From positions 3,924 to 67,923 of the forward strand of contig JACPOZ010000030.1 in the NCBI GenBank assembly GCA_016191235.1: 64,000 nucleotides of DNA. The letters run 5' to 3'. This document shows positions 9,498 through 28,735 of the stretch, in pieces (position 1 is the stretch's first letter; every line of letters begins with the position of its first letter). This DNA comes from Gammaproteobacteria bacterium. Its GTDB lineage: Bacteria > Pseudomonadota > Gammaproteobacteria > Ga0077554 > Ga007554. A model generated the notes under the pieces. It did no database searches. It was not told where the DNA came from and saw only the letters and a program-made list of their open reading frames with translations. The translations under genes and the position numbers were made by a program.

Positions 9498-11804
9498 ATG
9501 CCCAAAAATCTCCTTATCGTTGAATCGCCCGCCAAGGCCAAAACCTTGAAAAAATACCTGGGCAAGGACTTCGATATCCTCGCCTCCTACGGCCACGTGC
9601 GCGACCTGCTGCCCAAGGAGGGCGCCGTCGACACGGAACACAGCTTCGATATGAAGTACCAGACCATCGAAAGGAATGAAAAACACGTCGACGCCATCGT
9701 CAGCGCCATGAAAAAGGCCGACGTGCTCTATCTGGCGACCGATCCGGACCGTGAAGGCGAAGCCATCTCCTGGCATCTCCTGGAAATCCTCAAGGAAAAG
9801 AAACTCATCAAGGACAAACCCGTGCATCGCGTGGTGTTCTACGAGATCACCAAACGCGCGGTGAACGAGGCCGTGGCGAATCCGCGCGACATATCCATGG
9901 AGCTGGTCAACGCCCAGCAGGCGCGCCGCGCACTGGATTACCTGGTGGGCTTCAACCTCTCCCCGCTGCTGTGGAAGAAAATCCGCCGTGGCCTCTCTGC
10001 CGGGCGTGTGCAAAGCCCGGCATTGCGCATGATTGTCGAACGCGAGGAAGAGATTGAAAAATTCGTCACGCGCGAATACTGGACGATCCTGGCCAATCTC
10101 GCCAAAAAGGGTGATAACTTCAGCGCCAAACTTATCCAGTATCAAGGCGAAAAAATCAGCCAGTTCAGCGTTACCGATGGCGAACAGGCCAGCAAAATCG
10201 AGGAAGAGTTGCTGCGCGCCGCAGCGGGTACACTGGTGGTCGCCAAGGTAGACAAGAAGCAGCGCAAACGCAACCCTTCGCCCCCGTTCACCACCTCGAC
10301 GCTGCAACAGGAAGCATCGCGCAAACTGGGCTTTACCGCCCAGCGCACCATGCGCCTCGCCCAGCAACTTTACGAGGGTATCGACATCGGCGGTGGCGCG
10401 GTGGGCTTGATCAGCTACATGCGTACCGACTCGGTGAGCCTGGCGGCCGAGGCGCTGGATGATATCCGTAGCCTCATTGCCACCCGCTTCGGCAGCGACA
10501 ACGTGCCTGAGCAACCGCATTTTTACAAAACAAAATCCAAAAACGCCCAGGAAGCCCACGAGGCGATACGCCCCACTGCCGCAGAGCGCGTGCCGGAGTC
10601 GATCAAGGACAGCCTGACCGCCGACCAGTACAAGCTGTATGACCTGATCTGGAAACGCACCATCGCCTGCCAGATGATCCACGCCACCCTCGATACCGTA
10701 AGCGTCGACATGAGCGCAGGCGAAGGCAATCTGTTCCGCGCCAACGGCTCCACCGTGGTCCACCCCGGTTTCATGGCGGTGTACCAGGAGAGTGTAGACG
10801 ACAGCAAAGAAGGCGAGGATGAACGCCGCCTCCCCGTGCTGCTAGCCGGTGAAAAGATCGACCTGCTTGGCGTCCAGCCCGAACAACATTTCACCGAGCC
10901 ACCCCCGCGTTACGGCGAAGCCAGCCTGATCAAGGCGCTCGAAGAACACGGCATCGGTCGCCCCTCCACCTATGCGAGCATCATCTCCACGCTCCAGCAG
11001 CGCGAGTATGTGGAGCTGGACAAGCGGCGCTTCAAGCCCACCGACGTGGGGCGCATTGTCAACAAGTTCCTCACCGAATATTTCACGCGTTATGTGGATT
11101 ACGACTTCACCGCCCATCTCGAAGACGAACTCGACGCAGTGTCGCGCGGTGAAAAAGACTGGGTGCCGCTCCTGCGCGACTTCTGGACACCCTTCAAGGC
11201 CCAGGTCGACACTACTGAAGAGAACGTCAAGCGCCAGGATGTCACCCAGGAGGCGTTGGACGAAGCTTGCCCCAAATGCGGCAAACCGCTCTCGATCCGC
11301 CTCGGCAAACGTGGACGGTTCATCGGCTGCACCACGTACCCGGAGTGCGATTACACCCGCAATCTCAATGAAGAAGCGGGCGCTGTGACAGAACCCGAAG
11401 TCGTGGAAGGCCGCACCTGCCCCAAGTGTGAATCTCCGCTTATCTTCCGTCAAGGCCGCTACGGCAAGTTCATCGGCTGCAGCAATTACCCTGCCTGCAA
11501 ACACATCGAACCCCTGGAGAAACCCGCCGACACCGGCGTGGAATGCCCGCAATGTCACAAGGGCACCCTGCTCAAGCGCAAGTCGCGCTACGGCAAGATC
11601 TTCTACTCCTGCTCCACCTACCCGGATTGCAACTACGCCGTGTGGAACGAACCCCTCAACGAGTCCTGCCCAAAATGCAACTGGCCGGTGATGACCATCA
11701 AAACTACCAAGCGCCGCGGCACGGAAAAGGTCTGCCCGCAGAAAGAATGTGGCTATGCCGAGCCGTATGAGGCGGGGGAAACGGCGGAATCTGCGGAATC
11801 TTGA
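9498..11804 (+). CDS. topA: DNA topoisomerase I
   Basis: 768 aa with an N-terminal Toprim (LLIVESPAKAKTLKKYLG), catalytic Tyr region and three C-terminal Cys4 zinc ribbons (CPKCGKP, CPKCESP, CPQCHKG, CPKCNWP). Confidence 0.95.
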   Translation: MPKNLLIVESPAKAKTLKKYLGKDFDILASYGHVRDLLPKEGAVDTEHSFDMKYQTIERNEKHVDAIVSAMKKADVLYLATDPDREGEAISWHLLEILKEKKLIKDKPVHRVVFYEITKRAVNEAVANPRDISMELVNAQQARRALDYLVGFNLSPLLWKKIRRGLSAGRVQSPALRMIVEREEEIEKFVTREYWTILANLAKKGDNFSAKLIQYQGEKISQFSVTDGEQASKIEEELLRAAAGTLVVAKVDKKQRKRNPSPPFTTSTLQQEASRKLGFTAQRTMRLAQQLYEGIDIGGGAVGLISYMRTDSVSLAAEALDDIRSLIATRFGSDNVPEQPHFYKTKSKNAQEAHEAIRPTAAERVPESIKDSLTADQYKLYDLIWKRTIACQMIHATLDTVSVDMSAGEGNLFRANGSTVVHPGFMAVYQESVDDSKEGEDERRLPVLLAGEKIDLLGVQPEQHFTEPPPRYGEASLIKALEEHGIGRPSTYASIISTLQQREYVELDKRRFKPTDVGRIVNKFLTEYFTRYVDYDFTAHLEDELDAVSRGEKDWVPLLRDFWTPFKAQVDTTEENVKRQDVTQEALDEACPKCGKPLSIRLGKRGRFIGCTTYPECDYTRNLNEEAGAVTEPEVVEGRTCPKCESPLIFRQGRYGKFIGCSNYPACKHIEPLEKPADTGVECPQCHKGTLLKRKSRYGKIFYSCSTYPDCNYAVWNEPLNESCPKCNWPVMTIKTTKRRGTEKVCPQKECGYAEPYEAGETAESAES

Positions 11805-11919
11805 GCGTGTGACGATGCGTTAATCCTAAAAACTCAGTCATCCACGAAAGTCACAAAAAAACACGAAAATATTCAAATACATATCGCGATATTACTTGCC
11901 ACCCATCCGGTGAATTGCT

Positions 11920-12190
11920 AAAGCAATCCATGTTTTTGTCTACTCGCTGGTAGTCGATCCGGCCTGTCAAGGCCGCGGCATCGCCCGCGGCCTGCTCGAA
12001 GCCGCCGAACAGGCCGCCGCCGCAAAGGGCTGCATCACCATGCGCCTGGAGGTGCGCGCCGACAACGAGGCGGCCATACGGCTGTACTGCAAGGCCGGCT
12101 ACCGGACGGGCGAGTCGACAATTATTACGACGATGGAATGGCCGCGCAGCGGCTGCGCAAATCCATTGCCTTTGCCGACAATCCCCCGTA
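11920..12190 (+). pseudogene. GNAT (RimI-like) N-acetyltransferase remnant: 5'-truncated and frameshifted
   Basis: Only the C-terminal half of a GNAT fold remains (VYSLVVDPACQGRGIARGLLEAAEQAAAAKGCITMRLEVRADNEAAIRLYCKAGYR). The RimI-like tail (RVDNYYDDGMAAQ) continues in another frame near 12115. No N-terminal half or start codon is present. Confidence 0.55.
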
Positions 12191-12212
12191 ACCCTCACGG
12201 CCACTTTCGAGA

Positions 12213-12929
12213 TCAATAAGCCCAGTCCTCGTGTCTAACCGGCAGCCTATTCAGCTCATCCTTGTAGAACCGCCATTTCGGCATGAACTGATCCATCAAG
12301 GTTATGAAGCGCGCGTTATGCGTGCGCTCCAGCAAGTGAACCATCTCATGCACGACAATGTATTCGAGGCATTCGAGAGGCTTCTTTGTCAGTTCAGTAT
12401 TGAGGCGGATGCTTTTGGAGATTTTGCTACAGCTGCCCCACTTGGTTTTCATCCTTTGCACGAAGAATCTCTCCACCTTCACGCCCATGAGCGGTTCCCA
12501 TTTCGCGACCAACGGTAAGACTGCTTCTTTGAGCTTCTCTCGATACCAAGCATCCAGGACCTCTTGTTTCCGTTCATCACTGGTTTTCGGGCGAAGCTGA
12601 AGGATCATCCTGTTATGCTTTAGCTCGACTACTGGAGCCGCGTCCTTCTCGAGCACTTTGAGCAGGTAGCGCTTTCCCCAAACGTAATGGCTTTCGCGGT
12701 CGAGGTATTCGCGAGGTGTTTCCCGCTGCTGTTCACGCAACTTCTTTTGCTGGCTTTTGATCCAGCTGAGTTTGGTGATGGCAAAAATGCGAATAGTATC
12801 CAGGTCCATCCGCAATGGTGCGGAAATTCGCACCTTACCAGCCGGTGGATAGACGCTCAGGTGGATGTTCTTGATGTCCTTCTTCACCACGTCCACGGTA
12901 ATCTCACCCAGATTGATCTGCGTGACCAT
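12213..12929 (-). CDS. M48/DUF45 (YgjP-like) zinc metallopeptidase coupled to hsdR
   Basis: 238 aa with HEMVH (HExxH) in IVVHEMVHLLERTHNARF. Its start codon overlaps the hsdR stop by 1 nt. This family is recurrently encoded next to type I R subunits. Confidence 0.7.
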   Translation of the reverse strand: MVTQINLGEITVDVVKKDIKNIHLSVYPPAGKVRISAPLRMDLDTIRIFAITKLSWIKSQQKKLREQQRETPREYLDRESHYVWGKRYLLKVLEKDAAPVVELKHNRMILQLRPKTSDERKQEVLDAWYREKLKEAVLPLVAKWEPLMGVKVERFFVQRMKTKWGSCSKISKSIRLNTELTKKPLECLEYIVVHEMVHLLERTHNARFITLMDQFMPKWRFYKDELNRLPVRHEDWAY

Positions 12930-15900
12930 CAGTATTCCTTCTGCTGCTTGATGATAAGGAATATGCGCTCGACCTCGGCCATATCCTTCAGCACCTCATA
13001 TAGGGCGGTCTTGATGACATTCTCCTTGGCTTGAACGCCGCGCCAGCCGTCGGGCCGAGTGCGTTTGACGGCTTCCTCGATCCTGACAACCAGATTAAGC
13101 ACATCGTCTTTCGCGGTATCTCCATACGAAGCGGAAGGCTCAGCCACACAACTCACGCTGCCGGAAGCGGCCCCCTGCTTGAGATTGTTATAGAGGGCGC
13201 GGCGTCCCGGCGTATTCATCTGCTCTGGCGTATCTTCGGCCTGACCAGCATCCACTTTCTTCGCCAGCTCGGCAATCCGTTTCAGGTAGTCCTCATACTC
13301 GATAGCCTTCGCCTTGCGCGCGGCGATGATCTCATCCAGCAGCGCCGACATTTTCTCGTAGTAGGCCGGGTCGTTGAGGTGTTCCTTGATGATCTTGCTG
13401 CGGACGTTGTTCTCGATGGTTTCGGCAACGGCATCCTTGTTGCCCTTGAACCCATTCGGCAGGCTGTTGATCGCATTCGCGATGCCGGTTTTCACGATCA
13501 GCTCAAGCAACGGCATGTCGTCGAAGGGGGAAATCTTGCGCGGTTCGTCGGCTTCGATGTAGGTGTCGATGAGATGGCGCATGTCGGCCTCGTAGGCCTT
13601 GAGGTCGAGCGTCTCGCCACTGGCTTTGCGGATGATTTCGCGCACGTTCAGGTAGTGGTCGAGTTGCCGCTTGATGCGTGTGATGTCGGCAGGGCTATAG
13701 CCGGCCTTGTCCAGTTCGTCGGCGATGTTGGCGTAGGCGCGCACCAGCGCAACGGCCGCCTTGTAGAGCGCCGAACGCTGCGGTTCCCGCTCCTTCAGGT
13801 CGGAGGCAATCTCGGTGTTGCCGCAGAAGTAATGGATATGCTCGAGCTCACCCTTCGGCGGCGCCACCGGCTCGCACAGCAGTGCCAAGGTCTCCAGTGC
13901 GTTGTCGAGGCGTTCCTTGCCCTTCGTCAGACGATCCTGCAGCAACACTTCCGGATCAGGCCCACCGGCGCTGTGATCCAGTTCGGAGGTGTAGACCGCA
14001 ATGGCGTTCTCGACCTTCTTGAACAGGTCCTTGTAGTCCACGATGTAGCCGAAGTCCTTGTCCTCGCCGTCGAGACGGTTGACGCGGCAGATCGCCTGAA
14101 ACAGGCCGTGGTCCTGCATCGATTTGTCGATGTAAAGATAAGTGCAGGGCGGTGCGTCGAAGCCGGTGAGCAGCTTGTCCACCACGACCAGCAACTTCAT
14201 GTTCGCCGGTTCCTTGGTAAACAGGTCTTTGGCCCGCTCCTCGTAGATTTCCGTTTTGTTCATGCCCGGCCTGGCGTCGACATCCTTCAGCAGTTCGTTA
14301 TAGGTGTTGTAGATAAACTGCTTACCGGTCTCGGTGTTAGCGCCGGTTTCCTCCAGCGTCACGTCTCGGGCCAGCGGGTTGTAAGAGGTCACCACCGCAC
14401 ATCTGCCCTTGAATGGCGTCTTCTGGAACAGGGTGAAATACTTGCACGCCTCATAGATGCTCGATGCCACCAGGATAGCGTTGCCGCGCTCGCTGGACAG
14501 GCGCGGTTTGACACTGAAGTCGAACACAATGTCTGCCACCACCCGGTCCATGCGCGACTTGGAACTGAGCACGTGCTGCAACGTGCCCCACTGATTCTTT
14601 AGCTCGGCCTTCTGCCAATCGTTAAGCGCTTTGGTTTTGGCTTCGAACCAAGCGTCGATCTTGGCCTGCGATCCCAGGTGCTGATCGATGTCACGCGCCT
14701 CGTAAACGAGGTCGAGCACCACCCCGTCCTCCACTCCCTCACTGAACTTATAGGTATGAATGTAACCACCGAACACCTCCAGGCTGGTCTGTTTATCTTT
14801 CTTCAACAGCGGCGTGCCGGTAAAGCCGATGAATACCGCGTTGGGCATCATCGCCTTCATCACCCGATGCAGCTTGCCGCCTTGTGTACGGTGGCATTCG
14901 TCCACGAACACAAACACCTCACCCATGGTCTGGCTCGGCTGCGCTTCCAGCTCCCTGATAAAGGCATCGAAATCATCCACATCGCGGCGGCCAAACTTGT
15001 GCACCAGGGAGCAGAGCAGGCGCGGCCTGGCCTGACCGAGCTGGCTCATCAGCTCGCGCCCACTGCCGGTGCGTTTGATCGCCTCGCCCGCCTCGGTGAA
15101 GACGCGCTCGATCTGTTTGTCCAGTTCATCGCGGTCGGTGATGATGGCAACGCGGGCGTTGGGGTTGTTCTCCAGAATCCACTTCGCCAGCAGCACCATC
15201 ACAATGCTCTTACCGCTGCCCTGGGTGTGCCAGATGATGCCGCCCTTGCGCTGACGCACATGCTCCTGCGCTGCCTTGATGCCGAAATACTGATGCACAC
15301 GCGGCAGCTTCTTCACGCCACTATCGAAGAGCACGAAATCGTGCATCAGCTCGATCAACCGCTTCTTCTCGCACAGCTTGAGCAGATACTTGTCCAGCTT
15401 GAAGCGGCTGTTGTCCTGCTCATCCTCCTTCCACTTGAGGAAATACTTCTCCTGCGTACCGATGGTGCCATATTGCAGCCCCTCGGAATCATTACCAGCG
15501 AAGATGAACTGCACGGTGCTGAAGAACCACTCGTTGAACTCAGGCAGTTGATTGGACAAACTCTGGCGGATGCCATCACCAATGGAGGCACGGCTGTTCT
15601 TCAGCTCCAGCACGCCGATGGCGATGCCGTTCACATACAGCACGAGATCCGGCCGCCGCTCAAAATTGCCCTTGAGCGTCACCTCCTCGGCGATGGCGAA
15701 ATCATTTTTCTCCGGCTCATTCCAGTTGATGAGGCGGACACTCTCCGTCACCTTACCCACCTCAACTTTCACCGGCACGCCGTAGCGCAGCAGGTTGTAA
15801 ACAGAGTGATTGTTGCCGTAGAGCGTGCGGTTGTGGTTGTCCGCCTCGGTGCGCAGCTTGTGCAGCGCCACGCTGATCTGCGCCGGGGTGTAGCCGCTTT

Positions 15901-16051
15901 TTGTCAGCCACGCACTGAGCAGACTTTCCTCGACGTTGCTGTTGCCATCGCGGTCGGTCCAGTCGCCGAGGTAGCGATAACTTAGCTCATCGCGGAAAAG
16001 TGCGATGACTCGGTTCTGCGTCTCGCGTTCGGGTTGGCCGACATAATTCAT
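12929..16051 (-). CDS. hsdR: type I restriction enzyme R subunit (HsdR)
   Basis: 1040 aa with an N-terminal endonuclease region, SF2 helicase motifs (TGSGKS-like WHTQGSGKS, DEAH-like VFVDECHR) and a C-terminal helical domain. Confidence 0.9.
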   Translation of the reverse strand: MNYVGQPERETQNRVIALFRDELSYRYLGDWTDRDGNSNVEESLLSAWLTKSGYTPAQISVALHKLRTEADNHNRTLYGNNHSVYNLLRYGVPVKVEVGKVTESVRLINWNEPEKNDFAIAEEVTLKGNFERRPDLVLYVNGIAIGVLELKNSRASIGDGIRQSLSNQLPEFNEWFFSTVQFIFAGNDSEGLQYGTIGTQEKYFLKWKEDEQDNSRFKLDKYLLKLCEKKRLIELMHDFVLFDSGVKKLPRVHQYFGIKAAQEHVRQRKGGIIWHTQGSGKSIVMVLLAKWILENNPNARVAIITDRDELDKQIERVFTEAGEAIKRTGSGRELMSQLGQARPRLLCSLVHKFGRRDVDDFDAFIRELEAQPSQTMGEVFVFVDECHRTQGGKLHRVMKAMMPNAVFIGFTGTPLLKKDKQTSLEVFGGYIHTYKFSEGVEDGVVLDLVYEARDIDQHLGSQAKIDAWFEAKTKALNDWQKAELKNQWGTLQHVLSSKSRMDRVVADIVFDFSVKPRLSSERGNAILVASSIYEACKYFTLFQKTPFKGRCAVVTSYNPLARDVTLEETGANTETGKQFIYNTYNELLKDVDARPGMNKTEIYEERAKDLFTKEPANMKLLVVVDKLLTGFDAPPCTYLYIDKSMQDHGLFQAICRVNRLDGEDKDFGYIVDYKDLFKKVENAIAVYTSELDHSAGGPDPEVLLQDRLTKGKERLDNALETLALLCEPVAPPKGELEHIHYFCGNTEIASDLKEREPQRSALYKAAVALVRAYANIADELDKAGYSPADITRIKRQLDHYLNVREIIRKASGETLDLKAYEADMRHLIDTYIEADEPRKISPFDDMPLLELIVKTGIANAINSLPNGFKGNKDAVAETIENNVRSKIIKEHLNDPAYYEKMSALLDEIIAARKAKAIEYEDYLKRIAELAKKVDAGQAEDTPEQMNTPGRRALYNNLKQGAASGSVSCVAEPSASYGDTAKDDVLNLVVRIEEAVKRTRPDGWRGVQAKENVIKTALYEVLKDMAEVERIFLIIKQQKEY

Positions 16052-16099
16052 GCTGTGGTTTTCTTTTTCATCTGGGCCAGGCCTTCACTCATTCCTCGG

Positions 16100-17260
16100 T
16101 CAGTTGTCCGCCCTATTCAGCGCTGAGGGGATAAATCCCTCATCTGACAGGGCGCGAACCACGCCACGTATCAGGTAGTTATTGCTGAAACCGATGGTGT
16201 ACTGGCGCGCCCCTTCATTGATGGGTTGCAACATTTTTCGTTCCACCAATTTTTTGATTTGATAAGTACGCTGGGCGGGCGACATCCCCGGCATGGCAGC
16301 GGCCAGATCGGCCGCCTTGGCCACGCCACTTTTGGCAGCGATGTGCAACACGGACTCTTCCATCGCCGTGATGAGCTCTCGTTCTTTGGCATATGAAAGT
16401 GCAGGGGCAAGAATTTTGTCGCCCAAGTAGCCAAAGTCAGTGAGCCGATCTACTTTGCGCAATGCGTCCAGGATGCCTCGCAATACATATATGCACCATG
16501 CCTCCATCCCATCTGCGGCGCCGGAGTCGGCGCGCGCCAACATGGCGTAATACTGATCGCGGTTATTGCAGAACACGGCTGTTGGATTCAACACCCTGCC
16601 GCCGGTCTTCACATTGAAGCCGTACTTGATCAACAGGGCGTAGGTCAGCAGCCGCACCACGCGGCCATTGCCGTTGCCAAACGGGTGTATCCAGCCAAAA
16701 CGGTGGTGCGCCAGCGCCACCTTGATGAGGTCATATTTTGGGGGATGCTTTTCGTTGATGAACGCCACCAGCTCCTGCATGTAGTGCGGCACCTGGATGA
16801 ATTCGGGCGGCAAGTGTTCCGCCTGCGCAATCTTTACGGACTTCTGCCGGTAAGCCCCCGGCGTGGCGTCCCCCTCGCGTTCCAGCCCTTTTACCGTGAT
16901 GGCGTGCAGCTCGCGGATGAAGTGCTCAGTTAGCCCGTCGCCGGGCTGAATGCGCTCCTCGATGTAGGCCATGGCGGCTTCGATATTTTCCATTTCACGA
17001 AGCTGGTCAGAGGACGCGGGGGCGCCCTCCAGCTTGCTTTCCACATAGTCGGCCAATGTGGTGTGATTCCCCTCGATACGGGCCGATCCCAGGCTTTCCA
17101 GCATGTGAAAGATACCCTTGAGCTGAAAAAAGACCGGCGCCGGGGTGGTGCCGTGCAATTGCAGGCGGCGCAGGTGTTCCAGCTCCGTCAAAACGTCCAC
17201 CAGCGGGGAGTCAAACGACGGATTGAGCAAGGTCAGATCATGATGGCTAAATACAGGCAT
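16100..17260 (-). CDS. Fic/DOC family protein
   Basis: 386 aa carrying the Fic motif region [12 protein letters not shown] (HxFx[D/E]GNGRxxR with Asn in place of Asp/Glu) and a C-terminal winged-helix-like tail. Located between hsdS and hsdR. Confidence 0.8.
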
Positions 17261-17325
17261 GGCGATATTTATCTGTAATGGCGGAGACGGATTATCTTTA
17301 ATTTACACAGAGTTTATTCTTGAAA

Positions 17326-17379
17326 TCAACAAATTGCACCATAAAAATTGAAATGCTATCTTGAAATCACTCGGAGGGC
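17326..17379. promoter_or_regulatory. AT-rich putative promoter/operator region upstream of fic, with a direct repeat CTTGAAATCA(A/C)
   Basis: Two copies of TCTTGAAATCA about 40 bp apart in the hsdS-fic intergenic region. A GAGGGC...GCCCTC hairpin (17381-17403) follows. Confidence 0.3.
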
Positions 17380-17447
17380 ATATTGACTGGCCCTCGTTGA
17401 TGAAGTCGAAATGCATGGCTGTCTGCTAGACAGGAAGACCGCCATGC

Positions 17448-18701
17448 TCACACCAGCCGTATCCTCCCGGTGAGCAGCTCCTGCATCATGCCCTGCTTGA
17501 GGCTGCGGGCCTTGGCGAGCTTGGCTTCCAGTGCGGCGAGTTCGGCGTCCATGTCGGAAAGGAGGGTGGCGATGGCGGTTTGTTCGGCTTTCGCAGGTAG
17601 CGTCACTTCAAAAGCAGCGAGCTGTGTCTTACCGATTTCAAGGAACGTGCTGCCACCGCACAGACTGATAAATCCCTGTTTTTTCATAAGTAGCAGGTAG
17701 TAGAGAAACTCCACATCCACATGATCGAACGGAATGAAGTTCTTGAAGCCCTGATTCGTGGAAACTGAGACGGTATTGATCGCGCACTCACCAATGGTGG
17801 CTCGTGAGGTCATCACAATCGAGTTGGCCGGGATCATCTCGGCTGAACTGCTTTTCAGACCCAGTGACGAAATCTTGCGGCTAGTGTCGCTGATGTATTT
17901 GAAGCCGTTCAGCCCGGTAATATCGGTGGGCGTACACCAGGGAATGTCCCCATCCCAAAACTGCGGTTGTATCGTGCTTGGCGTTCCGCCGCTGCGAATG
18001 TTTGCCAACTCCCCCAACCGCTTCACCTCCCACTCCCCGCTGAAGCCCGGCAGGCGCTTCTTGCCGGTGAGCAGTTGCTGCATGGCGCCTTGTTTGAGGT
18101 GGCGTTTTTTGGCGATGAGTTGTGCCAGGGATTCGATGAGAGCATCCGCATCGCTCAACGCCTCGGCGATGGCTTCTTGTTCGGCTTTGGTGGGTGGGAG
18201 GACGAGGAATAGTCGTTTTAAGTTGTCTTGATTTATGTTCGTGTTGGCACTTACAGAACTTGCGCCAATCACCCGTCTCCTAAAGCCTTCCTCATAAAAG
18301 CAGTGTCTCTTAAAGCCGCGACTCAGAGTTCCACCATCTCGAAATCTGATCAAGAACCCTGAATACACGGTCTTTGGAAGATCTTCTTCGATGACCGCCG
18401 TTAGACCAACCCCGGAGGGTTTGACGGAGGACCTGATGAAAATCACATCACCTTTTCGGAGATCATATGTTTGTTGCTCTGCATGGTTTGTGTCCACAAG
18501 GCCGAGAGAATCGCTAGATGCAATGCTGGAAACGCCAAAAACATCCATGAGATTCACAAATGGTGAGCCATGGCCAAACGCTTCACTCCCCTTGTTGATA
18601 CCGTTCTTAAATTTGCCCACCTCACAAAGTTGGAAGATATTCCAATCCTCCGGAATCACCCCCACCTCGGTCTGCTTGTAGCCGGTCGGCATGTTATTCA
18701 T
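17448..18701 (-). CDS. hsdS: type I restriction-modification specificity subunit (HsdS), two target-recognition domains
   Basis: 417 aa. The conserved central spacer (LLTGKKRLPGFSGEWEVKRLGE) and C-terminal repeat (QGMMQELLTGRIRLV) flank two variable TRDs. Confidence 0.85.
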   Translation of the reverse strand: MNNMPTGYKQTEVGVIPEDWNIFQLCEVGKFKNGINKGSEAFGHGSPFVNLMDVFGVSSIASSDSLGLVDTNHAEQQTYDLRKGDVIFIRSSVKPSGVGLTAVIEEDLPKTVYSGFLIRFRDGGTLSRGFKRHCFYEEGFRRRVIGASSVSANTNINQDNLKRLFLVLPPTKAEQEAIAEALSDADALIESLAQLIAKKRHLKQGAMQQLLTGKKRLPGFSGEWEVKRLGELANIRSGGTPSTIQPQFWDGDIPWCTPTDITGLNGFKYISDTSRKISSLGLKSSSAEMIPANSIVMTSRATIGECAINTVSVSTNQGFKNFIPFDHVDVEFLYYLLLMKKQGFISLCGGSTFLEIGKTQLAAFEVTLPAKAEQTAIATLLSDMDAELAALEAKLAKARSLKQGMMQELLTGRIRLV

Positions 18702-19317
18702 CGTAGCCTCCCCGGTACGTCATGTTCCGTAGGGGCGACCGGCCGGTCGCCCCTACCCCGGTCGCCGGTACGTTATCCGGGTGCAATGTGTCCTCCGCCC
18801 AACGGCGTGGATTGTCGGCAACGTATTCGGCGATGCGGCGGTAATCGGCGGCGTCGCGGATGATGTGTTCGTAATAATTGCGTTGCCATACCGGCGCACC
18901 GGGGGATTGGCGGATTGCATTGATGCGTTTGGTGACAGCGGATTTGTAACCGGCCATCAATGCGCCGAGGGATTTCGATTGGGGGCCGGTGGGGGCGACT
19001 GGTGGGGCGACCCGCCGGTCGCCCGTACGGCCGGGCACGTCATTAGTAATGAGGACGATGGCGTGAAAATGATTAGGCATGATCACGTATTCGCCGAGTT
19101 CGATTTCTGCCCGGATTTCTGCTGACCGAAGCCATTCATCCGTCACAATCTGCCCGAATTCATTGGACTGCATCTCACCGTTCACGATTCCGCCGAACAG
19201 GCATTCGCGATCACAGGCGCAGATTGTCACGAAATAGCCGCCAGCCTGGGAGTAGTCATAATCTTTCAGACGGATCGAGCGGCGGTGGTGAATATCCCGG
19301 TTATAACGATTCATCAT
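18694..19317 (-). CDS. Y1 HuH transposase-like protein (IS200/RAYT-like, TnpA_REP family), translationally coupled between hsdM and hsdS
   Basis: 207 aa with N-terminal HRRSIRLKDYDYSQAGGYFVTICACDRECLFG, HuH motif MPNHFHAIVLI and a Tyr region VWQRNYYEHIIRD. It overlaps the hsdM stop by 4 nt and the hsdS start by 8 nt. Two GC-rich palindromes lie inside the CDS (18732-18753 and 19004-19025). Confidence 0.7.
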   Translation of the reverse strand: MMNRYNRDIHHRRSIRLKDYDYSQAGGYFVTICACDRECLFGGIVNGEMQSNEFGQIVTDEWLRSAEIRAEIELGEYVIMPNHFHAIVLITNDVPGRTGDRRVAPPVAPTGPQSKSLGALMAGYKSAVTKRINAIRQSPGAPVWQRNYYEHIIRDAADYRRIAEYVADNPRRWAEDTLHPDNVPATGVGATGRSPLRNMTYRGGYDE

Positions 19318-22233
19318 GCGAAACCCGTCTTCTTCAGGTGTTCGGCAGCCTTGCCCATTCCAAGCTCCAGCGCCTTCTGGGCATACCAGAGCCTGGTTTC
19401 CGGGTCGCTGAGTTTATCCAACAGGGTGAGATTGCTGCGCCAAGGCAATTGTGCAACGGTGCGTTGCACAATTGCCCGATCCGGCCAGGCATCTGCGAAT
19501 GTCCGCATGTACTTGAGGTTTCGCGGCGAGAATCCGGTCGTGCCGGGGAATGCGGTTTTCAAGTCATGGGAAATTACCTTCGCCCCCCACCCCTCCTGAT
19601 ACTGGCGTTCCAGAATGGATCGGCCGATGTCCCAATACATGAGTACCATGGCGGCATTGGCCGACAATACGGTTTTGATGCGCTCATGGGCTATGCGCTC
19701 TTTTATGTCGACTAAGAGTGTAGCGTAACCTTCAGGCATTGCGGCCAGGGTGTCGGGAACAGACATCAGCACGTCCGGTTTTGCCGTGCCACGGTTCTTG
19801 CGTCTGTCTGTCGGCTTGGCGACTTGATTCACCATCTGCGGCAGAGGGGTTTCGTAGCGTTCGGCCAACTCCTTCACGCGCTGGGTGAGCGCCTGGCTGA
19901 TGCGGTCCATCTCGCCGTGGATGGCGGCGGCGATGGCGGCCAGCCATTTATCTTCCACCACCAGCGTCTTGATCTCCGCCTCGGTGAGCGTGGGGTATTT
20001 GGCATAGGCCAGTGCGTCGAGCTTGGCCTCGGCGTCTTTCAGGGTTTTCTTGAGTTCAGCGTCCTGCGTGCTTAATTTCAGCCAAGCATTGAGGGCATGG
20101 GCCTCTTTCTTAGCCGCCTTGTCGCCTTTAATTTCTTTCAGGCGGGCGCTGACGTTGGCCTTGTTCACCTTGTCCAGCTCGGCAAACGCACCTTCTTCAC
20201 CGCCGTGTTCCTCTTCCAGTTCGGTCATCTGGGCGGCCACGCTTTCCAGCGCGGCCGCCTGCTGCGCGGTGAAGTAGCGATCCACGATGAGCGGTTTAGG
20301 TATAAGGTCGCAAGCCCAGCCTTTGTCCACTTCTTTGACTGTTTTGCCTTCCTTGTTTTTCTTGACTTCAATAACCCGGTAAGTCGTCGCCTTCCAGCCA
20401 TCTGAAGCGATCAGGTAACAATCGTCCTGCATGGTGGCAGCCCAATAGTCCATCAGGTGTTGATAGACGTCGTATTTATCAATCAGCGGCTGCGCCGTGT
20501 AGTGGGCGAGCAGGTCTTCAGCGAGCTCGTGGATGATATTTTTGGGGTGGCAACCTGCCTGCAAAGCCTTGAGCGTTTCACAACTGCGCTGTTGCCAGTC
20601 GGCAAACAGGGCATTCATGCTCTCGATGAAGCTGACGAACTCTGGATGCTGGTAGATGGTGGGCTTGATGGCTTGCTTGGAGACGGCCAGATCAAGGTAG
20701 CCGGGGCGCTTATCGGAAAGGTCGCGTAGCGAGACCGCGTCCCTCTCACCCGCTTGCGGAAGAGAGTTAGGAGAGAGGGGAACAGCTTTAAACAATGTCT
20801 TCCGAAGTCGTGGGCAAACATCCCAATACGGCTGCAAGGCATCCACGTCGGCTTTGGGGATGCCACCCTTCAGGTGCCCCTCGATGTCCTGAATATCTTC
20901 GACTTGCTGGCTGTCGATGTAGCGCGGGAGGTTGAGGTTGAATTCGTTCTTCTCGATCTCCTCGACGCTGACCATGCGCGAGTATTTGGGAATTTCCAGC
21001 CGCTTGTTGAAGGCATCGACGATCTGGTGAATGTCCATGTCGCGCAGGCGGTTCTTGGGGCCGTCCTTCATGTAGCCGCCGCTGGCGTCGATCATGAAGA
21101 TGCCCTTGCAGGTGTGGGCGTTTTCTTTGTCGATGACGATGATGCAGGCGGGAATGCCGGTGCCGTAGAACAGGTTGGCGGGCAGGCCGATAATGCCCTT
21201 GATGTAGCCTTTGCGGATGAGGTTCTTGCGGATGTCGGCCTCGGCATTGCCACGAAACAGAACGCCGTGCGGCAGAATGCAGGCGCCTTTGCCCGTGCTT
21301 TTCAGCGAGCGCACGATGTGCAGCAGGTAGGCGTAATCGCCTTGCTTGGCAGGTGGTGTGCCAAAATGTTGGAAGCGCTCGTGCGGATCGTTGAGCGGGT
21401 CGATGCCCGTGCTCCAGCGCTTGTCGCTGAAGGGCGGATTGGCAACGACGTAGTCGAAGGTTTTGAGCTGGCCATCCTCGCTTGTAAACAGCGGATTAGC
21501 CAGCGTATTGCCCTGCTTGATCAGCGCCGTTGGGTTGTTGTGCAGGATCATGTTCATGCGCGCCAGGCCAGAGGTGGCGGCGTCTTTCTCCTGCCCGTAA
21601 AGCGTGACCTTGGCTCTGGCTTCATCGCCCACTTTCAGCAGCAGCGAACCGGAACCGCAGGTCGGGTCATAAACAGTGGTATTGTTGCTGGTATGGGCAT
21701 CGTGAATGCCGATGATCTGCGCCATGATGCGGCTGACCTCGGCGGGTGTGTAGAACTGGCCCTTGCTCTTGCCACTCTCGGTAGCGAAGTGGCGCATCAG
21801 GTATTCATAAGCATCGTCCAGAATGTCATCGCCCTCCGCGCGGTTCTTTGAAAAGTCGAGCGCCTTGTTTTCAAAGATGGCGATCAGGTTGGTGAGCCGC
21901 TCTACAATTTCCGAGCCGCTGCCCAGCTTGCTGGGATCATTGAAGTCCGGCATGTCGGACAGCTTGTTGGCATTAGCCAGCGGCGCGATGATTTTCTTGT
22001 TGATCTGGTCACCGATGTCGGGCTTACCCTTTGAGCGCGACCATGTCCTTGAAGCTGGCACCTTCCGGGATGGTGATCGGTGCGAAAGGTACACCGGCGT
22101 ATTTGTCGCTGACGTACTTGATGAACAGCATGACCAGGACGTAGTCCTTGTATTGGCTGGCGTCCATGCCGCCGCGCAGCTCATCGCAACTGGACCAGAG
22201 GGAGAAATAGAGTTCGGATTTTTTCAGGGCCAT
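19314..22233 (-). CDS. hsdM: type I restriction-modification methyltransferase (HsdM) with an apparent +1 frameshift near 22028 (possible pseudogene or sequencing error)
   Basis: The N-terminal 69 aa (MALKKSELYFSLWSSCDELRGGMDASQYKDYVLVMLFIKYVSDKY...KDMVALKG) are in the frame 22024..22233. The rest of the N6-adenine methyltransferase (NPPF motif VVANPPFSDKRW, SAM-binding DPTCGSGSLL) continues in the 19314..22184 frame. The junction is at a GGG run (minus strand). Confidence 0.8.
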
Positions 22234-22629
22234 GTGGGTTTAAACGCTTTTTCTTTGATAGAAGTGCAGAAAAGTTGGGGGCGGGTGATTAAGCAGTACG
22301 ACGATTTTGGCTTATATCGAACAGCTTGTCATCTTTGTCGGGCATTGATTGTCAGGTATTAAATTAAATGAAAAAAGAAAGTCCGATTATGGCCGTTTTT
22401 CGACATGCGGGAGTCGACCCTGAGCAGATATTCAGTGGGGAAGTGACAGGGGCAATGGAATTTCAGGTAAGGCGCGACAGCGCCTCGGCGGTGAATCATT
22501 TACCTGGCGGTGGCTGTGGCTGGCATCTGATCGTTCATGCCTGCTATAATCAACCTGTTATTTTCTATCCATTTTGTGCATGGGCATGGCTGTGGTGACC
22601 TGCAGGCTGTGCGGCAAGGTGCTCTTAAA

Positions 22630-23442
22630 GTGTCAAAAAACAACGATGAGCCTATCGTAAAAATCCGCAGCTTGCGTTTCGCGCATGGGACCCGCGTGAT
22701 TTTTGACGGCGTGGACATCGACATCCCGCGCGGCAAGATTACCGCTATCATGGGTCCCAGCGGCACGGGCAAGACCACGCTGCTGAAACTGATCGGCGGT
22801 CAGTTGCAGCCCAATGCGGGCAGCGTCGTGGTGGACGGCGAGGACGTCAACAAAGTGTCCCGTGATGCGCTGTTCCGCTTGCGCAAGCGCATGAGCCTGT
22901 TGTTCCAGACCGGCGCGCTGTTTACCGATCTCACCGTATTCGAAAACGTGGCCTTTCCGTTGCGCGAGCACACCCGTTTGCCCGAGTCGATACTGCGCGA
23001 CCTGGTGCTGATGAAGCTGCAGGCGGTAGGTCTGCGCGGTGCACGCGACCTGCTGCCTGCCGAATTGTCGGGCGGCATGGCGCGGCGTGTGGCGCTGGCC
23101 AGGGCCATTGCGCTGGACCCGATGATGATTATGTACGATGAGCCCTTCACCGGCCAGGATCCGATCACTGTGGGCGTGATCATGCAGCTTATCCGTATGC
23201 TCAACGACACCTTGGGGCTGACCAGCATCATTGTTTCTCACGATGTGCATGAGTTGACGATGATTTGCGACCATATGTACATGATCTCGGGCGGCAAGGT
23301 GATGGGACACGGGACGCCCGATGATATGGCCCACTCGGAATCGGGCTGGGTGAGGCAGTTCATGTCCGGATTGCCGGATGGCCCGGTGCCGTTCCACTAT
23401 CCGGCGCCGGATTACGCCGACGATCTGTTGGCTGGGGCATAA
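22630..23442 (+). CDS. mlaF: phospholipid ABC transporter ATP-binding protein MlaF
   Basis: Walker A GPSGTGKTT, signature LSGGMARRVALARA and Walker B MIMYDEP. A GTG start at 22630 is proposed; the in-frame ATG at 22537 is also possible. Confidence 0.85.
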   Translation: MSKNNDEPIVKIRSLRFAHGTRVIFDGVDIDIPRGKITAIMGPSGTGKTTLLKLIGGQLQPNAGSVVVDGEDVNKVSRDALFRLRKRMSLLFQTGALFTDLTVFENVAFPLREHTRLPESILRDLVLMKLQAVGLRGARDLLPAELSGGMARRVALARAIALDPMMIMYDEPFTGQDPITVGVIMQLIRMLNDTLGLTSIIVSHDVHELTMICDHMYMISGGKVMGHGTPDDMAHSESGWVRQFMSGLPDGPVPFHYPAPDYADDLLAGA

Positions 23443-23480: not shown

Positions 23481-24263
23481 ATGATGGGATGGTTGCAGCG
23501 GCTGGGAAGCACCAGCCTGAGTGTTTTTGAACGGTTGGGGCGCGGCAATCTGTTCCTGTTACGCATACTGGCTGCCCTGCCCAGTCTGGTGCTGCGACCG
23601 GGGCTGGTAATCGCACAGCTTTATTCTGTAGGTGTGTTGTCAATGACGCTGATCGTCATTTCCGGGCTTAACGTAGGCATGGTGCTGGGCCTGCAAGGAT
23701 ATAATACCCTGGTGGATTTTGGCTCCGAGGAGTCCTTGGGGCAACTGGTTGCCCTGTCGCTGGTGCGTGAATTGGGGCCAGTTGTGGCAGCGCTGCTGTT
23801 CGCCGGGCGGGCCGGGTCAGCATTGACCGCCGAGATCGGGCTGATGAAGGCCACTGAGCAGCTCTCCGGGATGGAGATGATGGCGGTCGATCCGCTCAAG
23901 CGTGTGGTCGCGCCCCGTTTTATTGCCGGTATCATTTCCATGCCGCTGCTGGCGGCAATGTTCAGTGCAGTGGGTGTGCTGGGTGGTTTTTTTGTCGGTG
24001 TCGGTCTGCTCGGTGTGGACAGCGGAGCGTTCTGGTCGCAAATGCAGTCCAAGGTCGATCTGTATGACGACATCCTTAACGGCGTGATTAAAAGCATTGT
24101 GTTCGGTTGTGTGGCGGCCTGGATCGCGGTTTTTGAAGGGTACGACGCAGTGCCGAACACGGAAGGTGTGAGCCGCGCCACCACGCGTACCGTGGTGCAT
24201 ACGGCGTTTGCCGTGCTGGGGCTGGATTTCATATTGACTGCGCTGATGTTTGGGGACGAATAA
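23481..24263 (+). CDS. mlaE: phospholipid ABC transporter permease MlaE
   Basis: 260 aa polytopic membrane protein of the MlaE/Ttg2B family, downstream of mlaF. Confidence 0.85.
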
Positions 24264-24759
24264 GATGATGCAGAAAAGAACCATAGAGATCGGGGTGGGT
24301 GTGTTCGTTGCGGCGGGCATTGCTGCATTGGTGATGTTGGCCATGAAGGTCAGCAACCTGGCCGCCTTCACCAACCAGCAGGGCTACGAAGTCACCGCCC
24401 GGTTTGACAATATTGGTGGACTCAAGGAGCGTTCGGCTGTAACAGTGGCGGGTGTGCGCATTGGCCGGGTGAAGTCGATCGTGTTCGACGACAAGGATTA
24501 TGAGGCCGTGGTCACGATGAATATCGAATCCCAACATGACCGCTTGCCCGCCGACACCTCCGCAAGCATTTTGACCGCAGGGCTGCTGGGCGAGCAGTAT
24601 GTGGCGCTGGAACCGGGTGGCGACGAAGCCTTTCTGAAGCCGGGCGGAGATATCAAGCTTACCCAGTCGGCGATTATTCTGGAGAAGATGGTGGGCCAGT
24701 TCTTGTTTGACAAGGCGGCTGGTGGGGATGGGAAAAAAGAAGAAGGGGCTGCGCCGTGA
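24250..24759 (+). CDS. mlaD: MCE-domain periplasmic substrate-binding protein MlaD
   Basis: 169 aa with an N-terminal TM anchor followed by an MCE domain. Overlaps the mlaE stop. Confidence 0.8.
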
Positions 24760-26120
24760 TGCGGATCGGGTTAGCGGGGCTGGTGGGGTTGCTGGCCTGT
24801 GTGAATGCGGCAGCGGAAACCGTGCCGCTGACACTGGAACAGGCAACGGCGCGCGCCTTGCAGACAGATCCGCGCGTTACCGAGCGCCAGCGTCTCGTCG
24901 ATGCTGCGCAGGCGTTGCTTGCGGAAGTGAACGGCAACGAGGGCTGGAGGTTTGACGCCAATACCTTTCTCGCGGTGTCACCGGGTGCGAATGGCAATAT
25001 ATTCAAGGGCGGCGACTGCGCCCCCGGCAGTTGCACCCTGCGTTCTGATAGATATGACATGAGCAATGGCTTTTCGCCCTGGGTCAACTTGCAGATGACC
25101 ATACTCAAGCCCCTGTACACTTTTGGCAAGGTTGAAAATTACGCTGCCGCCGCGCGCGCCAATATTGAGGTCAAGGACAACGATGTGCGCTTGCAGCGCG
25201 CCACGACGGTGCTGGATGTGCAGCGCGCCTACTATGGTTGTCTGGCGGCGCGTGACGCGCGGTTGTTTTTATCGGATGTCAAGGAACGCGTTGCCAAGAC
25301 CATCGATCTCGCCAAGAGATGGCTGGACGATGGGCAGGGCGACATCAGACAAGCCGACGTATTCGCACTCCAGGCCGCGCATTCGCTGGTGAGTAGATAT
25401 ATAGCCCAAGCCGAAGGCATGGAGAAAGTTGCTAACGATGGATTGAAGGTGCTCGCCGGCATCGCTGCGCAAGATGAGATTCAGCTTGCCGACGACACCT
25501 TGGCCCCGGTGCTGTTGCCTGAGGCCAAATTACCTGAACTCCAGGATCAGGCGCTGGCCAATCGGCCTGAGATGAAGCAGGTGGATGCGGGATTGCGTGC
25601 CCGCCGCGCCTTGGTAGAGGCGCGCCAGGCCGACAAATTGCCAAATGTGTATGCGGGTGTGGCGGGGGTCCTTTCTTACTCTCCCAACCGCGACAATCTC
25701 AAGAACCCGTACATCTACGATCCTTTCAACACCGCCGGTTTGACGCCGATGATCGGTCTCCAGTGGGCTTGGCAGCCGCGGGCGCAGGACGCAAAAGTTG
25801 CGCAAGAGCAGGCGGAATTGAATGCGTTGCTCGCCAAGTCGGATTTTGCCCGGCGCGGCATCCCATTCCAGGTGGCGGAGCAGTACCATCAGATGCAGGC
25901 GGACTTTACGGCGGTGCGGGAATTGAGTGAAGGCAGCCGCAATGCGCGGCGCTGGATGATCGGGCGCTATGCGGATTTTGAGGCTGGCCTTGAAACGGCG
26001 GATCGGGTTATCACCGCCTTCCAGGGGTACGTGTTGGCACAGACTGACTATATCAAGACGGTGTATGATTTCAACATGCATGTAGCGCAATTGCGCAATG
26101 TAACCGGAGCGGACGAATGA
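24756..26120 (+). CDS. TolC-family outer membrane protein embedded in the mla operon
   Basis: 454 aa with a signal peptide ([20 protein letters not shown]). OEP-like N-terminal helix region (LTLEQATARALQTDPRV) and a two-repeat architecture. Sits between mlaD and mlaC and overlaps both by 4 nt. Confidence 0.6.
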   Translation: MMRIGLAGLVGLLACVNAAAETVPLTLEQATARALQTDPRVTERQRLVDAAQALLAEVNGNEGWRFDANTFLAVSPGANGNIFKGGDCAPGSCTLRSDRYDMSNGFSPWVNLQMTILKPLYTFGKVENYAAAARANIEVKDNDVRLQRATTVLDVQRAYYGCLAARDARLFLSDVKERVAKTIDLAKRWLDDGQGDIRQADVFALQAAHSLVSRYIAQAEGMEKVANDGLKVLAGIAAQDEIQLADDTLAPVLLPEAKLPELQDQALANRPEMKQVDAGLRARRALVEARQADKLPNVYAGVAGVLSYSPNRDNLKNPYIYDPFNTAGLTPMIGLQWAWQPRAQDAKVAQEQAELNALLAKSDFARRGIPFQVAEQYHQMQADFTAVRELSEGSRNARRWMIGRYADFEAGLETADRVITAFQGYVLAQTDYIKTVYDFNMHVAQLRNVTGADE

Positions 26121-26746
26121 AAAAATTGATTGCTGCGATGCTGTTGCTGTGTATGGCGGGGTTTGCGCCGGTGGGCGTAAGCGCCAACGTGCCTCAACCG
26201 CCGCAGGATATGGTGAAGCAGACCGCCGACAGCATGCTTGCCAAGCTCAAGGAAGAGAGGGTTGTGATACGTAAGGACCCAGGCCGGATTTACGACCTGG
26301 TCAGCAGTATTGTTTTGCCGCACTTTGACTTTGAGCGCATGTCGTCATGGGTGCTGGGCAAGTATTGGCGCACCGCCACCCCAGCGCAGAAAAAACGCTT
26401 CAGCGAAGAGTTCCGCAATCTGCTGGTGCGTACCTATGCCACCTCGTTGACCGAGTATACGGACCGCAAGATTAACTACCTGCCGTTTCGCGCCGACCCC
26501 AATGATACCGACGTGACGGTGCGTACCGAGGTGGCTCAGCCGGGTGCCGCATCGATCCCTATCGATTACCGGCTTGCACTCACGAATGACGAGTGGAAGG
26601 TTTACGATGTGTCCATCGACAGTGTCAGTCTAGTGACAAACTACCGCACGACGTTTGCCAATCAGATCCGGCAAGAAGGGTTGGACAAGCTTATCGAAAA
26701 ACTCGCTACGCGCAACGAGAAATCCAGCGCGCCTTCCGCCAAATGA
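26117..26746 (+). CDS. mlaC: periplasmic phospholipid-binding protein MlaC (Ttg2D family)
   Basis: 209 aa with a signal peptide and a Tol-tolerance Ttg2D-like fold signature. Confidence 0.8.
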   Translation: MKKLIAAMLLLCMAGFAPVGVSANVPQPPQDMVKQTADSMLAKLKEERVVIRKDPGRIYDLVSSIVLPHFDFERMSSWVLGKYWRTATPAQKKRFSEEFRNLLVRTYATSLTEYTDRKINYLPFRADPNDTDVTVRTEVAQPGAASIPIDYRLALTNDEWKVYDVSIDSVSLVTNYRTTFANQIRQEGLDKLIEKLATRNEKSSAPSAK

Positions 26747-27042: not shown

Positions 27043-27132
27043 CGGTGATTATAAAAGTCCTGGTTAAACGCCATGCTCTTCATATGTTTGATACAATAAC
27101 CGTATTTGGTATACGAAAGCAGAGGGTTTCAA

Positions 27133-28716: not shown

Positions 28717-28735
28717 CAAATGTGGTTTATGGAAA

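Follow-up and report, generated by a model that had tools for sequence, protein, structure and literature searches.

Between topA and mlaF of a gammaproteobacterial contig lies a 10,352-bp island (12168–22519) that carries a type I restriction–modification (R-M) locus and, embedded between its hsdM and hsdS genes, a gene for a REP (repetitive extragenic palindrome)-associated tyrosine transposase (RAYT, or TnpA_REP). Here we describe the genes of this island, the site that it occupies, the state of its hsdM gene, and the recurrence of such transposases beside type I genes in other genomes. The DNA analysed, hereafter the window, is a 64-kb stretch of contig JACPOZ010000030.1 (GenBank assembly GCA_016191235.1, positions 3,924 to 67,923 of the forward strand), and all coordinates refer to it unless a locus from another assembly, designated by an L number, is named. 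Gene identities come from Pfam, NCBIfam and PADLOC profile searches of the window proteins, which found, between 12213 and 22233, all six of the minus-strand genes that an earlier note on this DNA had described. Its picture of a type I R-M island to which fic, a YgjP/M48 gene and a tnpA_REP-like gene have been added is supported, and the island is strain-specific. Absent from that note were a frameshift in hsdM, an in-frame relic of a DUF1016 gene, and a 28-nt REP palindrome in the RAYT gene.

Gene content and layout of the island

The first gene in the direction of transcription, preceded by a sigma-70-like promoter match (22304–22332, minus strand; a consensus match only), is hsdM (19314–22233). 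It belongs to a long family of about 806 aa and is disrupted as described below, while its N6-adenine methyltransferase domain is detected by profile (PF02384, E = 2e-100; TIGR00497, 243.9 bits with a cut-off of 242.75; PADLOC MTase_I). Next come the 207-aa RAYT gene (18694–19317) and hsdS (17448–18701), in which Pfam Methylase_S (PF01420) matches two stretches and PADLOC recognizes Specificity_I; aligned with its homologues in L084–L086, HsdS has two target-recognition domains (TRDs) and conserved central and C-terminal regions. Next, in the slot before hsdR, comes fic (16100–17260; Pfam Fic, E = 6e-19), which is SoFic-like: the PADLOC SoFic profile matches residues 39–354 (E = 1e-48), the NCBIfam SoFic equivalog is far from reached (40.6 bits; cut-off 550), and the Fic motif reads HPFGNGNGR, with N where the canonical HxFx(D/E)GNGRxxR has D or E. 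It shares the PADLOC profile match and the presence of a Fic motif with the single-gene SoFic defence system, and differs from it in the NCBIfam score, in the N of the motif and in being embedded in an hsd operon rather than standing alone. Full-length hsdR follows (12929–16051; TIGR00348, 513 bits; PADLOC REase_I, 1449 bits over residues 1–1038), with both the HSDR_N nuclease domain and the SF2 motor (PF04313, PF18766, PF22679), and directly downstream of it lies the gene for a YgjP-like (DUF45/M48-type) metallopeptidase (12213–12929; PF01863, E = 8.5e-60 over profile positions 3–206 of 207), whose HExxH motif is HEMVH.

Start and stop codons overlap at several of these junctions. The hsdM and RAYT genes share an ATGA, the RAYT stop and the hsdS start overlap by 8 nt, with the predicted ribosome-binding site of hsdS sitting within the RAYT tail, and the hsdR stop and ygjP start overlap by 1 nt. 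Accessory genes have been reported in comparable positions: DUF1016 and RhuM occur between core hsd coding sequences, with an enrichment beside hsdS (PMC9881135), and DUF1016 is found together with R-M domains (PMC3424549). The window is like such operons in having Fic in the hsdS–hsdR slot and a DUF1016 relic in the hsdM tail; it differs in that an HUH/Y1 REP-associated transposase is encoded between hsdM and hsdS.

Borders of the island and the empty site

An empty site defines the island. It was recovered only by searching from the GNAT acetyltransferase gene, searches based on topA and on mlaF having given none, and it is present in L168 (a 138-kb JGI contig) and in L169 and L170 (Logan contigs), where an LPG_synthase_C gene, an intact 147-aa GNAT gene, 167 nt and mlaF follow one another. 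The DNA of these sites is 90–92% identical, and the intact GNAT gene, directly upstream of mlaF, 90% identical. Positions 10208–10441 of L168 align with 11938–12167 of the window, and L168 from 10502 onwards aligns from window position 22520, which places the breakpoints between 12167 and 12168 and between 22519 and 22520; the island is therefore 12168–22519. It starts directly after the last sense codon of the GNAT gene, replaces the stop codon and about 57 nt of the GNAT–mlaF spacer, and leaves the mlaF promoter region (CTGCTATAAT...) in place.

At the left border the GNAT gene survives as a remnant on the plus strand (11938–12191), convergent with ygjP of the island. The earlier note had called it 5′-truncated and frameshifted, and this is borne out: conceptual translation matches Acetyltransf_1 (E = 2.8e-14) over profile positions 64–116 of 116, the first 207 nt are gone, the frame shifts near 12112, and eight island-encoded codons replace the native stop. 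The remnant is 91.5% identical to nt 208–441 of the intact gene in L168; a further homologue, P0242, is a 101-aa GNAT 98% identical to it. A 121-aa open reading frame (ORF) on the minus strand (11851–12216) was considered as the GNAT gene and rejected, having no family match, and the GNAT signal lies on the plus strand.

The same note had the island inserted into this rimI-like GNAT gene between topA and mlaF, which would have split the gene. A truncated and frameshifted GNAT gene abutting the island is what such an insertion might leave, but what remains is the 3′ part of GNAT (nt 208–441 of 444), up to its last sense codon, so that the missing 5′ part would lie to the left, on the topA side, and no GNAT sequence is found at the right border (22234–22629). 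The intact gene that the note had proposed to look for in related genomes was found in L168–L170, and comparison with it places the start of the island after the last sense codon, in contradiction to an insertion into the gene. Nor does topA stand beside GNAT or mlaF in any relative examined. We regard insertion into GNAT as extremely improbable. Since the missing 207 nt were on the topA side, the truncation is instead a separate rearrangement. Of the earlier picture, the R-M island and its position between a damaged GNAT gene and mlaF stand; the insertion into GNAT and the topA–mlaF junction do not.

The topA gene (9498–11804, plus strand; Pfam Topoisom_bac, Toprim and Zn ribbons) is shared with the closest relatives, L001 and L002 (95–96% TopA identity, about 90% DNA identity), in which synteny by blastn stops at 11779–11792, at the topA stop; beyond it lie a pilus/type II secretion system-like cluster in L001 and pepA with pyruvate dehydrogenase genes in L002. 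In the topA-based search synteny was lost at the topA stop in all 80 relatives, with no GNAT or mla gene downstream, and the supposed ancestral junction is contradicted by 75 relatives without GNAT or mla genes after topA; the commonest genes in that position are tsaC, a LysR regulator and purE. The joint between topA and the GNAT remnant is 133 nt long and holds the solo terminus of a dispersed repeat (11837–11869, plus strand; TCCACGAAA..CAC..CACGAAAA). The note had assigned this terminus to its repeat family A; it is present, but its match to the copies at 47509, 55193 and 55310 is only about 69%.

Several families of short hairpin- or MITE (miniature inverted-repeat transposable element)-like repeats are also found elsewhere in the window (56225–56364, 62091–62282, 53737–53985 and 28731–28941), with 70–98% identity to sequences in L002, L004, L005, L061 and L168. 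In L061 a copy directly follows topA, which is where the window has its solo terminus, and repeats of this sort may have brought about the rearrangement at topA.

To the right of the island, mlaF (22630–23442, plus strand) is the first gene of a mla-bolA-murA-his block, and synteny with relatives resumes at 22520–22631. Its start is the GTG at 22630, giving 271 aa: the ORF that begins at 22537 (301 aa) is about 30 codons too long, homologues being 271–275 aa, and synteny and identity start at the GTG. The non-coding stretch before mlaF, which had been put at 400 bp, thus measures 396 nt (22234–22629), with mlaF starting at 22630 and not at 22537. Look-ups based on mlaF gave no empty site, the contigs of L166 and L167 ending or differing just upstream of the gene. 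In L166 (157–828), where MlaF is 96% identical, it is a DedA/VTT-domain gene, not GNAT, that directly precedes mlaF. This part of the chromosome thus varies within the clade, with three states among five genomes.

Disruption of hsdM

The true start of hsdM is the ATG at 22233, from which a 69-aa piece with the HsdM_N signature (Pfam) can be read. Alignment with the 84%-identical hsdM of L084 (CTCAAAGGGTAAG versus CTC-AAGGGTAAG) reveals one extra A (AAA at 22030–22032 versus AA in L084), and a TAA stop (22024–22026) follows codon 69; beyond it the gene remains readable in the +1 frame. L172, L173 and L174 (Logan SRR12113392, JGI 3300038435 and ENA ERZ27314160) have 100% identical DNA here and encode the same 69-aa product. 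The frameshift allele is common to four assemblies and is therefore not an error of a single one.

The second defect is at the other end of the gene. Where the canonical tail, seen in L084 and L086, runs ...ERYETPLPQ-(about 17 aa)-HLKRMGFS to the stop codon, the window has a 155-codon relic of a DUF1016 gene (19353–19817, minus strand; Pfam DUF1016_N, E = 5e-32; PADLOC PDC-S02, E = 5e-52), placed in-frame between ...ERYETPLPQMVNQVA and KAAEHLKKTGFA, as which the native tail resumes up to its stop. The relic consists of a 5′ leader and the N-terminal domain (profile positions 1–120 of 137) and is without the C-terminal PD-(D/E)XK nuclease domain. Thus it differs from DUF1016/PDC-S02 proteins, which are YhcG-like nucleases, in retaining the N-terminal domain only and in being fused in-frame to hsdM.

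Just upstream of the RAYT gene the relic contains a hairpin (19444–19476) with a 15-bp stem and a 3-nt loop, GGCAATTGTGCAACG-GTG-CGTTGCACAATTGCC. The same hairpin occurs at 976–1002 of L085, in a 94-nt spacer between hsdM and the RAYT gene, and degenerate DUF1016-like codons follow it. The junction between DUF1016 relic and RAYT is therefore older than the divergence of these cassettes, and it may be that the RAYT took the place of the 3′ half of a DUF1016 gene.

Truncation after 69 residues, together with the 155-residue C-terminal insert, has probably left the methyltransferase core non-functional. Methylation, and hence restriction, would then be lost or strongly reduced, and the R-M system is probably inactive or decaying. 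The hsd genes are in any case not all intact, hsdM carrying both the frameshift with its stop and the 155-codon insert; the reading frames of hsdS, hsdR, fic, ygjP and the RAYT gene are intact. Type I restriction depends on the M2S methyltransferase core, and loss of hsdM would therefore be tolerated. An inactive hsdM was part of what the earlier note had said would speak against its reading, and with hsdM frameshifted in four assemblies half of that is seen.

The stop codon might instead be bypassed. A +1 ribosomal shift at GGG-UAA-G would allow hsdM to be expressed in full and give the R-M system a low or regulated activity: if the T after GGG (22029–22027) is skipped, the canonical ...ALKG-KPDIG... 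is restored, with residues as in L084, and the allele has been kept in four assemblies in which the frame downstream is fully open and hsdS and hsdR are intact. However, no Shine–Dalgarno-like stimulator of the prfB type lies upstream of the shift site, the site is absent from the L084 homologue, a recent inactivating mutation explains the hsdM data equally well, and the DUF1016 insertion may disable HsdM in any case. We consider such a bypass very unlikely and continue with hsdM as a probably inactivated gene.

A subclass 2.4 RAYT and its REP palindromes

The RAYT retains the residues expected of an active enzyme of its kind. Alignment to E. coli TnpA_REP (4ER8) places the HUH motif in PNHFHAIV (H83-F-H85) and the catalytic tyrosine, Y165, in AEYVADNP, and the GTAG-guide residues W94, Q95, E100, H101 and R104 of the E. 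coli protein correspond to W144, Q145, E150, H151 and R154. Catalytic and guide residues are invariant among 31 homologues with identity down to 57% (37 invariant columns). An AlphaFold model (pLDDT, the predicted local distance difference test, 75.6, and >90 in the core) has 4er8_A, a structure of TnpA_REP with a bound REP hairpin, as its top PDB match in Foldseek (E = 4e-6), followed by IS200/IS605 transposases. The protein is therefore like E. coli TnpA_REP in fold, catalytic tyrosine and the W/Q/E/H/R guide residues, but shares only 17% identity with it and has an extra loop of about 25–30 residues encoded by REP. Its NCBIfam REP_Tyr_transpos score, 60.8 bits, is below the equivalog cut-off of 80, the model being centred on other subclasses; PADLOC gave no match, nor did Pfam at its gathering threshold. 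From its residues the enzyme is predicted to be catalytically competent.

Two REP copies occur in the 64-kb window, both inside the RAYT gene. A perfect 28-nt ‘double-foot’ palindrome, GTAGGGGCGACCGGCCGGTCGCCCCTAC (18729–18756), lies in the 3′ end of the ORF and encodes VGATGRSPL, and a degenerate copy (19004–19025), with two mismatches to the 22-nt core, lies in-frame in the HUH–Tyr loop and encodes GDRRVAP. The HUH–Tyr span, H83 to Y165, is 82 residues. In subclass 2.4 of TnpA_REP proteins, which is the same as RAYT group 4 (Quentin et al., 2018, PMC6006769; Bertels et al., 2017, PMC5581495), REPs carry a GT[AG]G foot on the 5′ side and the complementary foot on the 3′ side, and they occur in-frame in the tnpA_REP gene between HUH and Tyr, the spacing of which is longer and variable (median 88; PMC6006769). 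The window RAYT shares with this subclass the HUH and Tyr motifs, the long insert, the GTAG/CTAC double-foot REP, the in-frame REP copies, the patchy taxonomic spread and the lack of a C-terminal extension domain, and on these features we assign it to subclass 2.4 (group 4), a known family. It differs in two ways: with one perfect and one degenerate copy in 64 kb no REP population is seen there, and the gene has no flanking intergenic DNA of its own, being wired into the hsd operon by overlapping start and stop codons.

The exact 28-mer was also sought in IMG/VR, where it occurs in only seven stretches (L175–L181), none with a RAYT or hsd gene within the flanks fetched. The idea that REPs target phage DNA found no support there and was dropped.

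Sister cassettes in other genomes

The same architecture, hsdM, RAYT, hsdS, a variable slot, hsdR and ygjP, recurs with other flanks in L084, L085 and L086. On the 3.2-Mb contig of L084, hsdM is 78–84% and hsdR–ygjP 77% identical in nucleotides to the window, and in L081 the DNA from RAYT to hsdR is 99.7% identical. In the variable slot before hsdR, the window has fic, L085 an ATPase and fic, L084 a DUF4062/HATPase/HTH gene and L086 nothing; the hsdR–ygjP pair is also present in L084 and L085. Judging from this shared architecture in different flanks, the cassette is a predicted mobile module.

A more reduced form is found next to mutS on the 4.6-Mb contig of L083 (9755–10655), where all that is left is 146 nt from the start of hsdM, 121 nt from the end of the DUF1016 relic, the RAYT gene and 54 nt of hsdS. 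The RAYT gene is intact and 95% identical to that of the window. Here, the RAYT has outlived the R-M genes.

In the sister cassettes REPs are also found within the hsd genes themselves. The intact hsdS genes of L084 (9355–9382) and L085 (2378–2405) each contain a perfect 28-nt REP in-frame, encoding IVGATGRSPL, exactly between the central conserved region and TRD2, and the intact hsdM of L084 has another (6079–6106). As a result of the former, the REP at the 3′ end of the RAYT gene and the one just before TRD2 bracket TRD1 and the central conserved region of hsdS in both loci. These in-frame copies resemble Rickettsia palindromic elements, which are likewise inserted in coding genes.

Recurrent type I context of the RAYT family

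The RAYT family is large (>7,900 clusters at E ≤ 0.001), and the question arises of how often its members lie beside type I genes. We sampled 80 metagenome loci encoding the closest relatives of the window RAYT (41–64% identity) and, with L084 and L085 added (82 loci in total), searched each locus by tblastn after removal of matches overlapping the RAYT; the same queries were run on 80 topA-neighbourhood loci (1.27 Mb) as a control. Type I genes lay beside the RAYT in 10 of the 34 loci with at least 1 kb on both sides, compared with none of the 80 control loci (Fisher p = 2e-6), and in 4 of the 13 with at least 5 kb, always co-oriented. Upstream neighbours (n = 53) included N6_Mtase seven times, HsdS four times, EcoEI_R_C twice and RhuM once, and downstream neighbours (n = 50) HsdS five times, HSDR_N twice and N6_Mtase once; the remaining neighbour families were singletons or pairs of housekeeping genes. 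The REP core had 49 copies in 570 kb of RAYT loci versus none in the 1.27 Mb of control loci.

These associations are diverse. The hsd genes beside the RAYTs come from different families (HsdM 24–39% identical to that of the window), the junctions vary (M-RAYT-S, M-S-RAYT-hsdR, RAYT-M), and in a neighbour-joining tree RAYTs with R-M genes beside them are interspersed with other RAYTs. A double-foot REP, of the form GTAGGGGC-N12-GCCCCTAC and particular to the locus, is present at each R-M-linked RAYT, with copies in-frame in the RAYT gene and, in several loci, also in hsdM (L084, L144, L156), hsdS (L084, L085) or hsdR (L098, L156). Among the 120 best homologue clusters, 21 have a RAYT tail that reads ...PLR..GGxxE up to the stop codon; the ribosome-binding site and start codon of hsdS would lie within such a tail in the window, L084 and L085. 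In a plasmid collection only five distant RAYT homologues were found, the best of which (on a Leptolinea plasmid) is outside an R-M context.

A literature search for links between RAYT, REP transposase or COG1943 and hsd or type I R-M returned nothing relevant, and one on COG1451 with type I systems nothing usable; the RAYT classification papers (PMC6006769, PMC5581495) make no mention of a type I R-M link. The recurrent embedding of subclass 2.4 RAYTs and their REPs in type I operons thus appears not to have been described before.

Does the RAYT work for the R-M system? It could cut REP hairpins in single-stranded DNA and so exchange the TRD modules of hsdS or move hsd modules or the cassette, or it could act as a nuclease effector, as do other genes embedded in type I loci. 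The main hint is the bracketing of TRD1 and the central conserved region of hsdS by REPs in L084 and L085. The catalytic residues have been kept through long co-residence with hsd genes, the translational coupling to hsdM and hsdS is kept in the window, L084 and L085, embedding recurs, co-oriented, with different hsd families and at every junction (M-R-S, M-S-R-hsdR, R-M, with R the RAYT), and the RAYT of L083 has persisted where the hsd genes were lost by deletion. On the other hand, about 70% of RAYT family members are not near R-M genes, the REPs in hsdM and hsdR are scattered rather than module-bounded, the window hsdS has no internal REP and there is no second hsdS copy or spare TRD cassette, and PADLOC has no model for RAYT. 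A working partnership is on balance unlikely. The broader proposal, that subclass 2.4 RAYTs are a recurrent functional module of type I operons and swap or mobilise hsd modules or the whole cassette via GTAGGGGC...GCCCCTAC hairpins, we also hold to be unlikely.

Phase-variable type I systems offer a further comparison. There too an enzyme that breaks and joins DNA is encoded next to hsdS, but these systems use integrase-type or serine invertases and have several hsdS copies flanked by inverted repeats (PMC7672463, PMC9881135), whereas the window has a single hsdS, no inverted hsdS fragments and an HUH enzyme that acts on single strands.

Proposed history of the locus

Taken as an R-M locus, the island is ordinary, one more horizontally acquired, partly decayed type I system. 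The joint reading that we consider likely is that of a horizontally acquired, decaying mobile cassette beside GNAT, a separate rearrangement that truncated GNAT, and a RAYT carried as a passenger. A mobile cassette of the order hsdM – tnpA_REP (subclass 2.4) – hsdS – slot, here fic – hsdR – ygjP would have been acquired horizontally and would have landed in the short GNAT–mlaF spacer, directly after the last GNAT sense codon. A second rearrangement would then have deleted the first 69 codons of GNAT and everything upstream, joining the rest to the 3′ flank of topA through the 133-nt joint. The cassette would now be decaying, a one-base insertion cutting hsdM after codon 69 and the DUF1016 relic coming to lie in-frame in the C-terminal helix region. 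This order of events is inferred. On the simplest account, the RAYT/REP pair would be a long-term passenger of mobile, addictive R-M cassettes, expressed by translational coupling to hsdM and hsdS. Its double-foot REPs would occasionally insert in-frame where the protein tolerates them, in the RAYT itself and also, among the sister cassettes, in HsdM, HsdS and HsdR.

Several observations weigh against this history. There is no tRNA in the 64 kb and no Rfam match, no integrase among the six genes and no target duplication; the island has no terminal direct or inverted repeats, and its base composition is not different from that of the flanks. About 887 hsdM codons downstream of the stop are still open, so the break is either recent or bypassed. 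The three additional assemblies with the frameshift allele, being 100% identical to the window, may be related samples or one enrichment lineage, which makes the case for fixation in a population weaker. In the census, the control was conserved housekeeping DNA (topA neighbourhoods) rather than a matched random sample, and the 80 RAYT loci had been picked as the closest relatives of an R-M-embedded query.

With no integrase among its six genes, no tRNA nearby and no terminal repeats, the island does not have the hallmarks of an integrase-mediated genomic island. The lack of insertion scars, whether target duplication or repeats, and of a compositional signal would suit a region of ancestral origin that relatives have lost by deletion, with no insertion in the window, as would the differences upstream of mlaF among relatives, such as the DedA/VTT gene of L166. 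However, three independent samples share the same clean GNAT–167 nt–mlaF junction, and cassettes with 77–92% nucleotide identity stand in wholly different flanks in L083 and L084, as expected of a mobile module. We find ancestry with deletion in relatives very unlikely, and acquisition of a mobile cassette remains our preferred account.

Flanking regions

Two further features of the flanks deserve mention. In the mla operon of the window (24263–27100), as in all close relatives (L166, L167 and L168), a gene of about 453 aa for an outer-membrane efflux protein (OEP/TolC-like, a weak Pfam match) lies between mlaD and mlaC, and downstream come mlaB, with a STAS domain, bolA, murA and the his operon; the presence of an OEP gene within the mla operon is unlike the arrangement in E. 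coli. Farther downstream, a pair of 32-nt inverted repeats (44927–44958 and 46116–46147, 91% complementary) brackets 1,157 nt, possibly a small insertion sequence or a MITE.

Significance

The exact empty site illustrates how a cassette can enter at a stop codon without any integrase, after which a second rearrangement would have reshaped the neighbourhood. The wider interest lies in the RAYT. To our knowledge, the ‘domesticated’ transposases of RAYT group 4 (subclass 2.4) have had no clear cellular role since their discovery. Here we find them inside type I operons in roughly three of every ten informative loci, with hsd genes of different families and in different orders. Should complete genomes confirm this association, RAYT biology would gain a concrete and testable genomic partner, and an HUH enzyme would join the genes known from within R-M loci. 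Were these RAYTs in fact a functional module of type I operons, they would represent a recombinase-independent route to new restriction specificities and to the spread of R-M systems.

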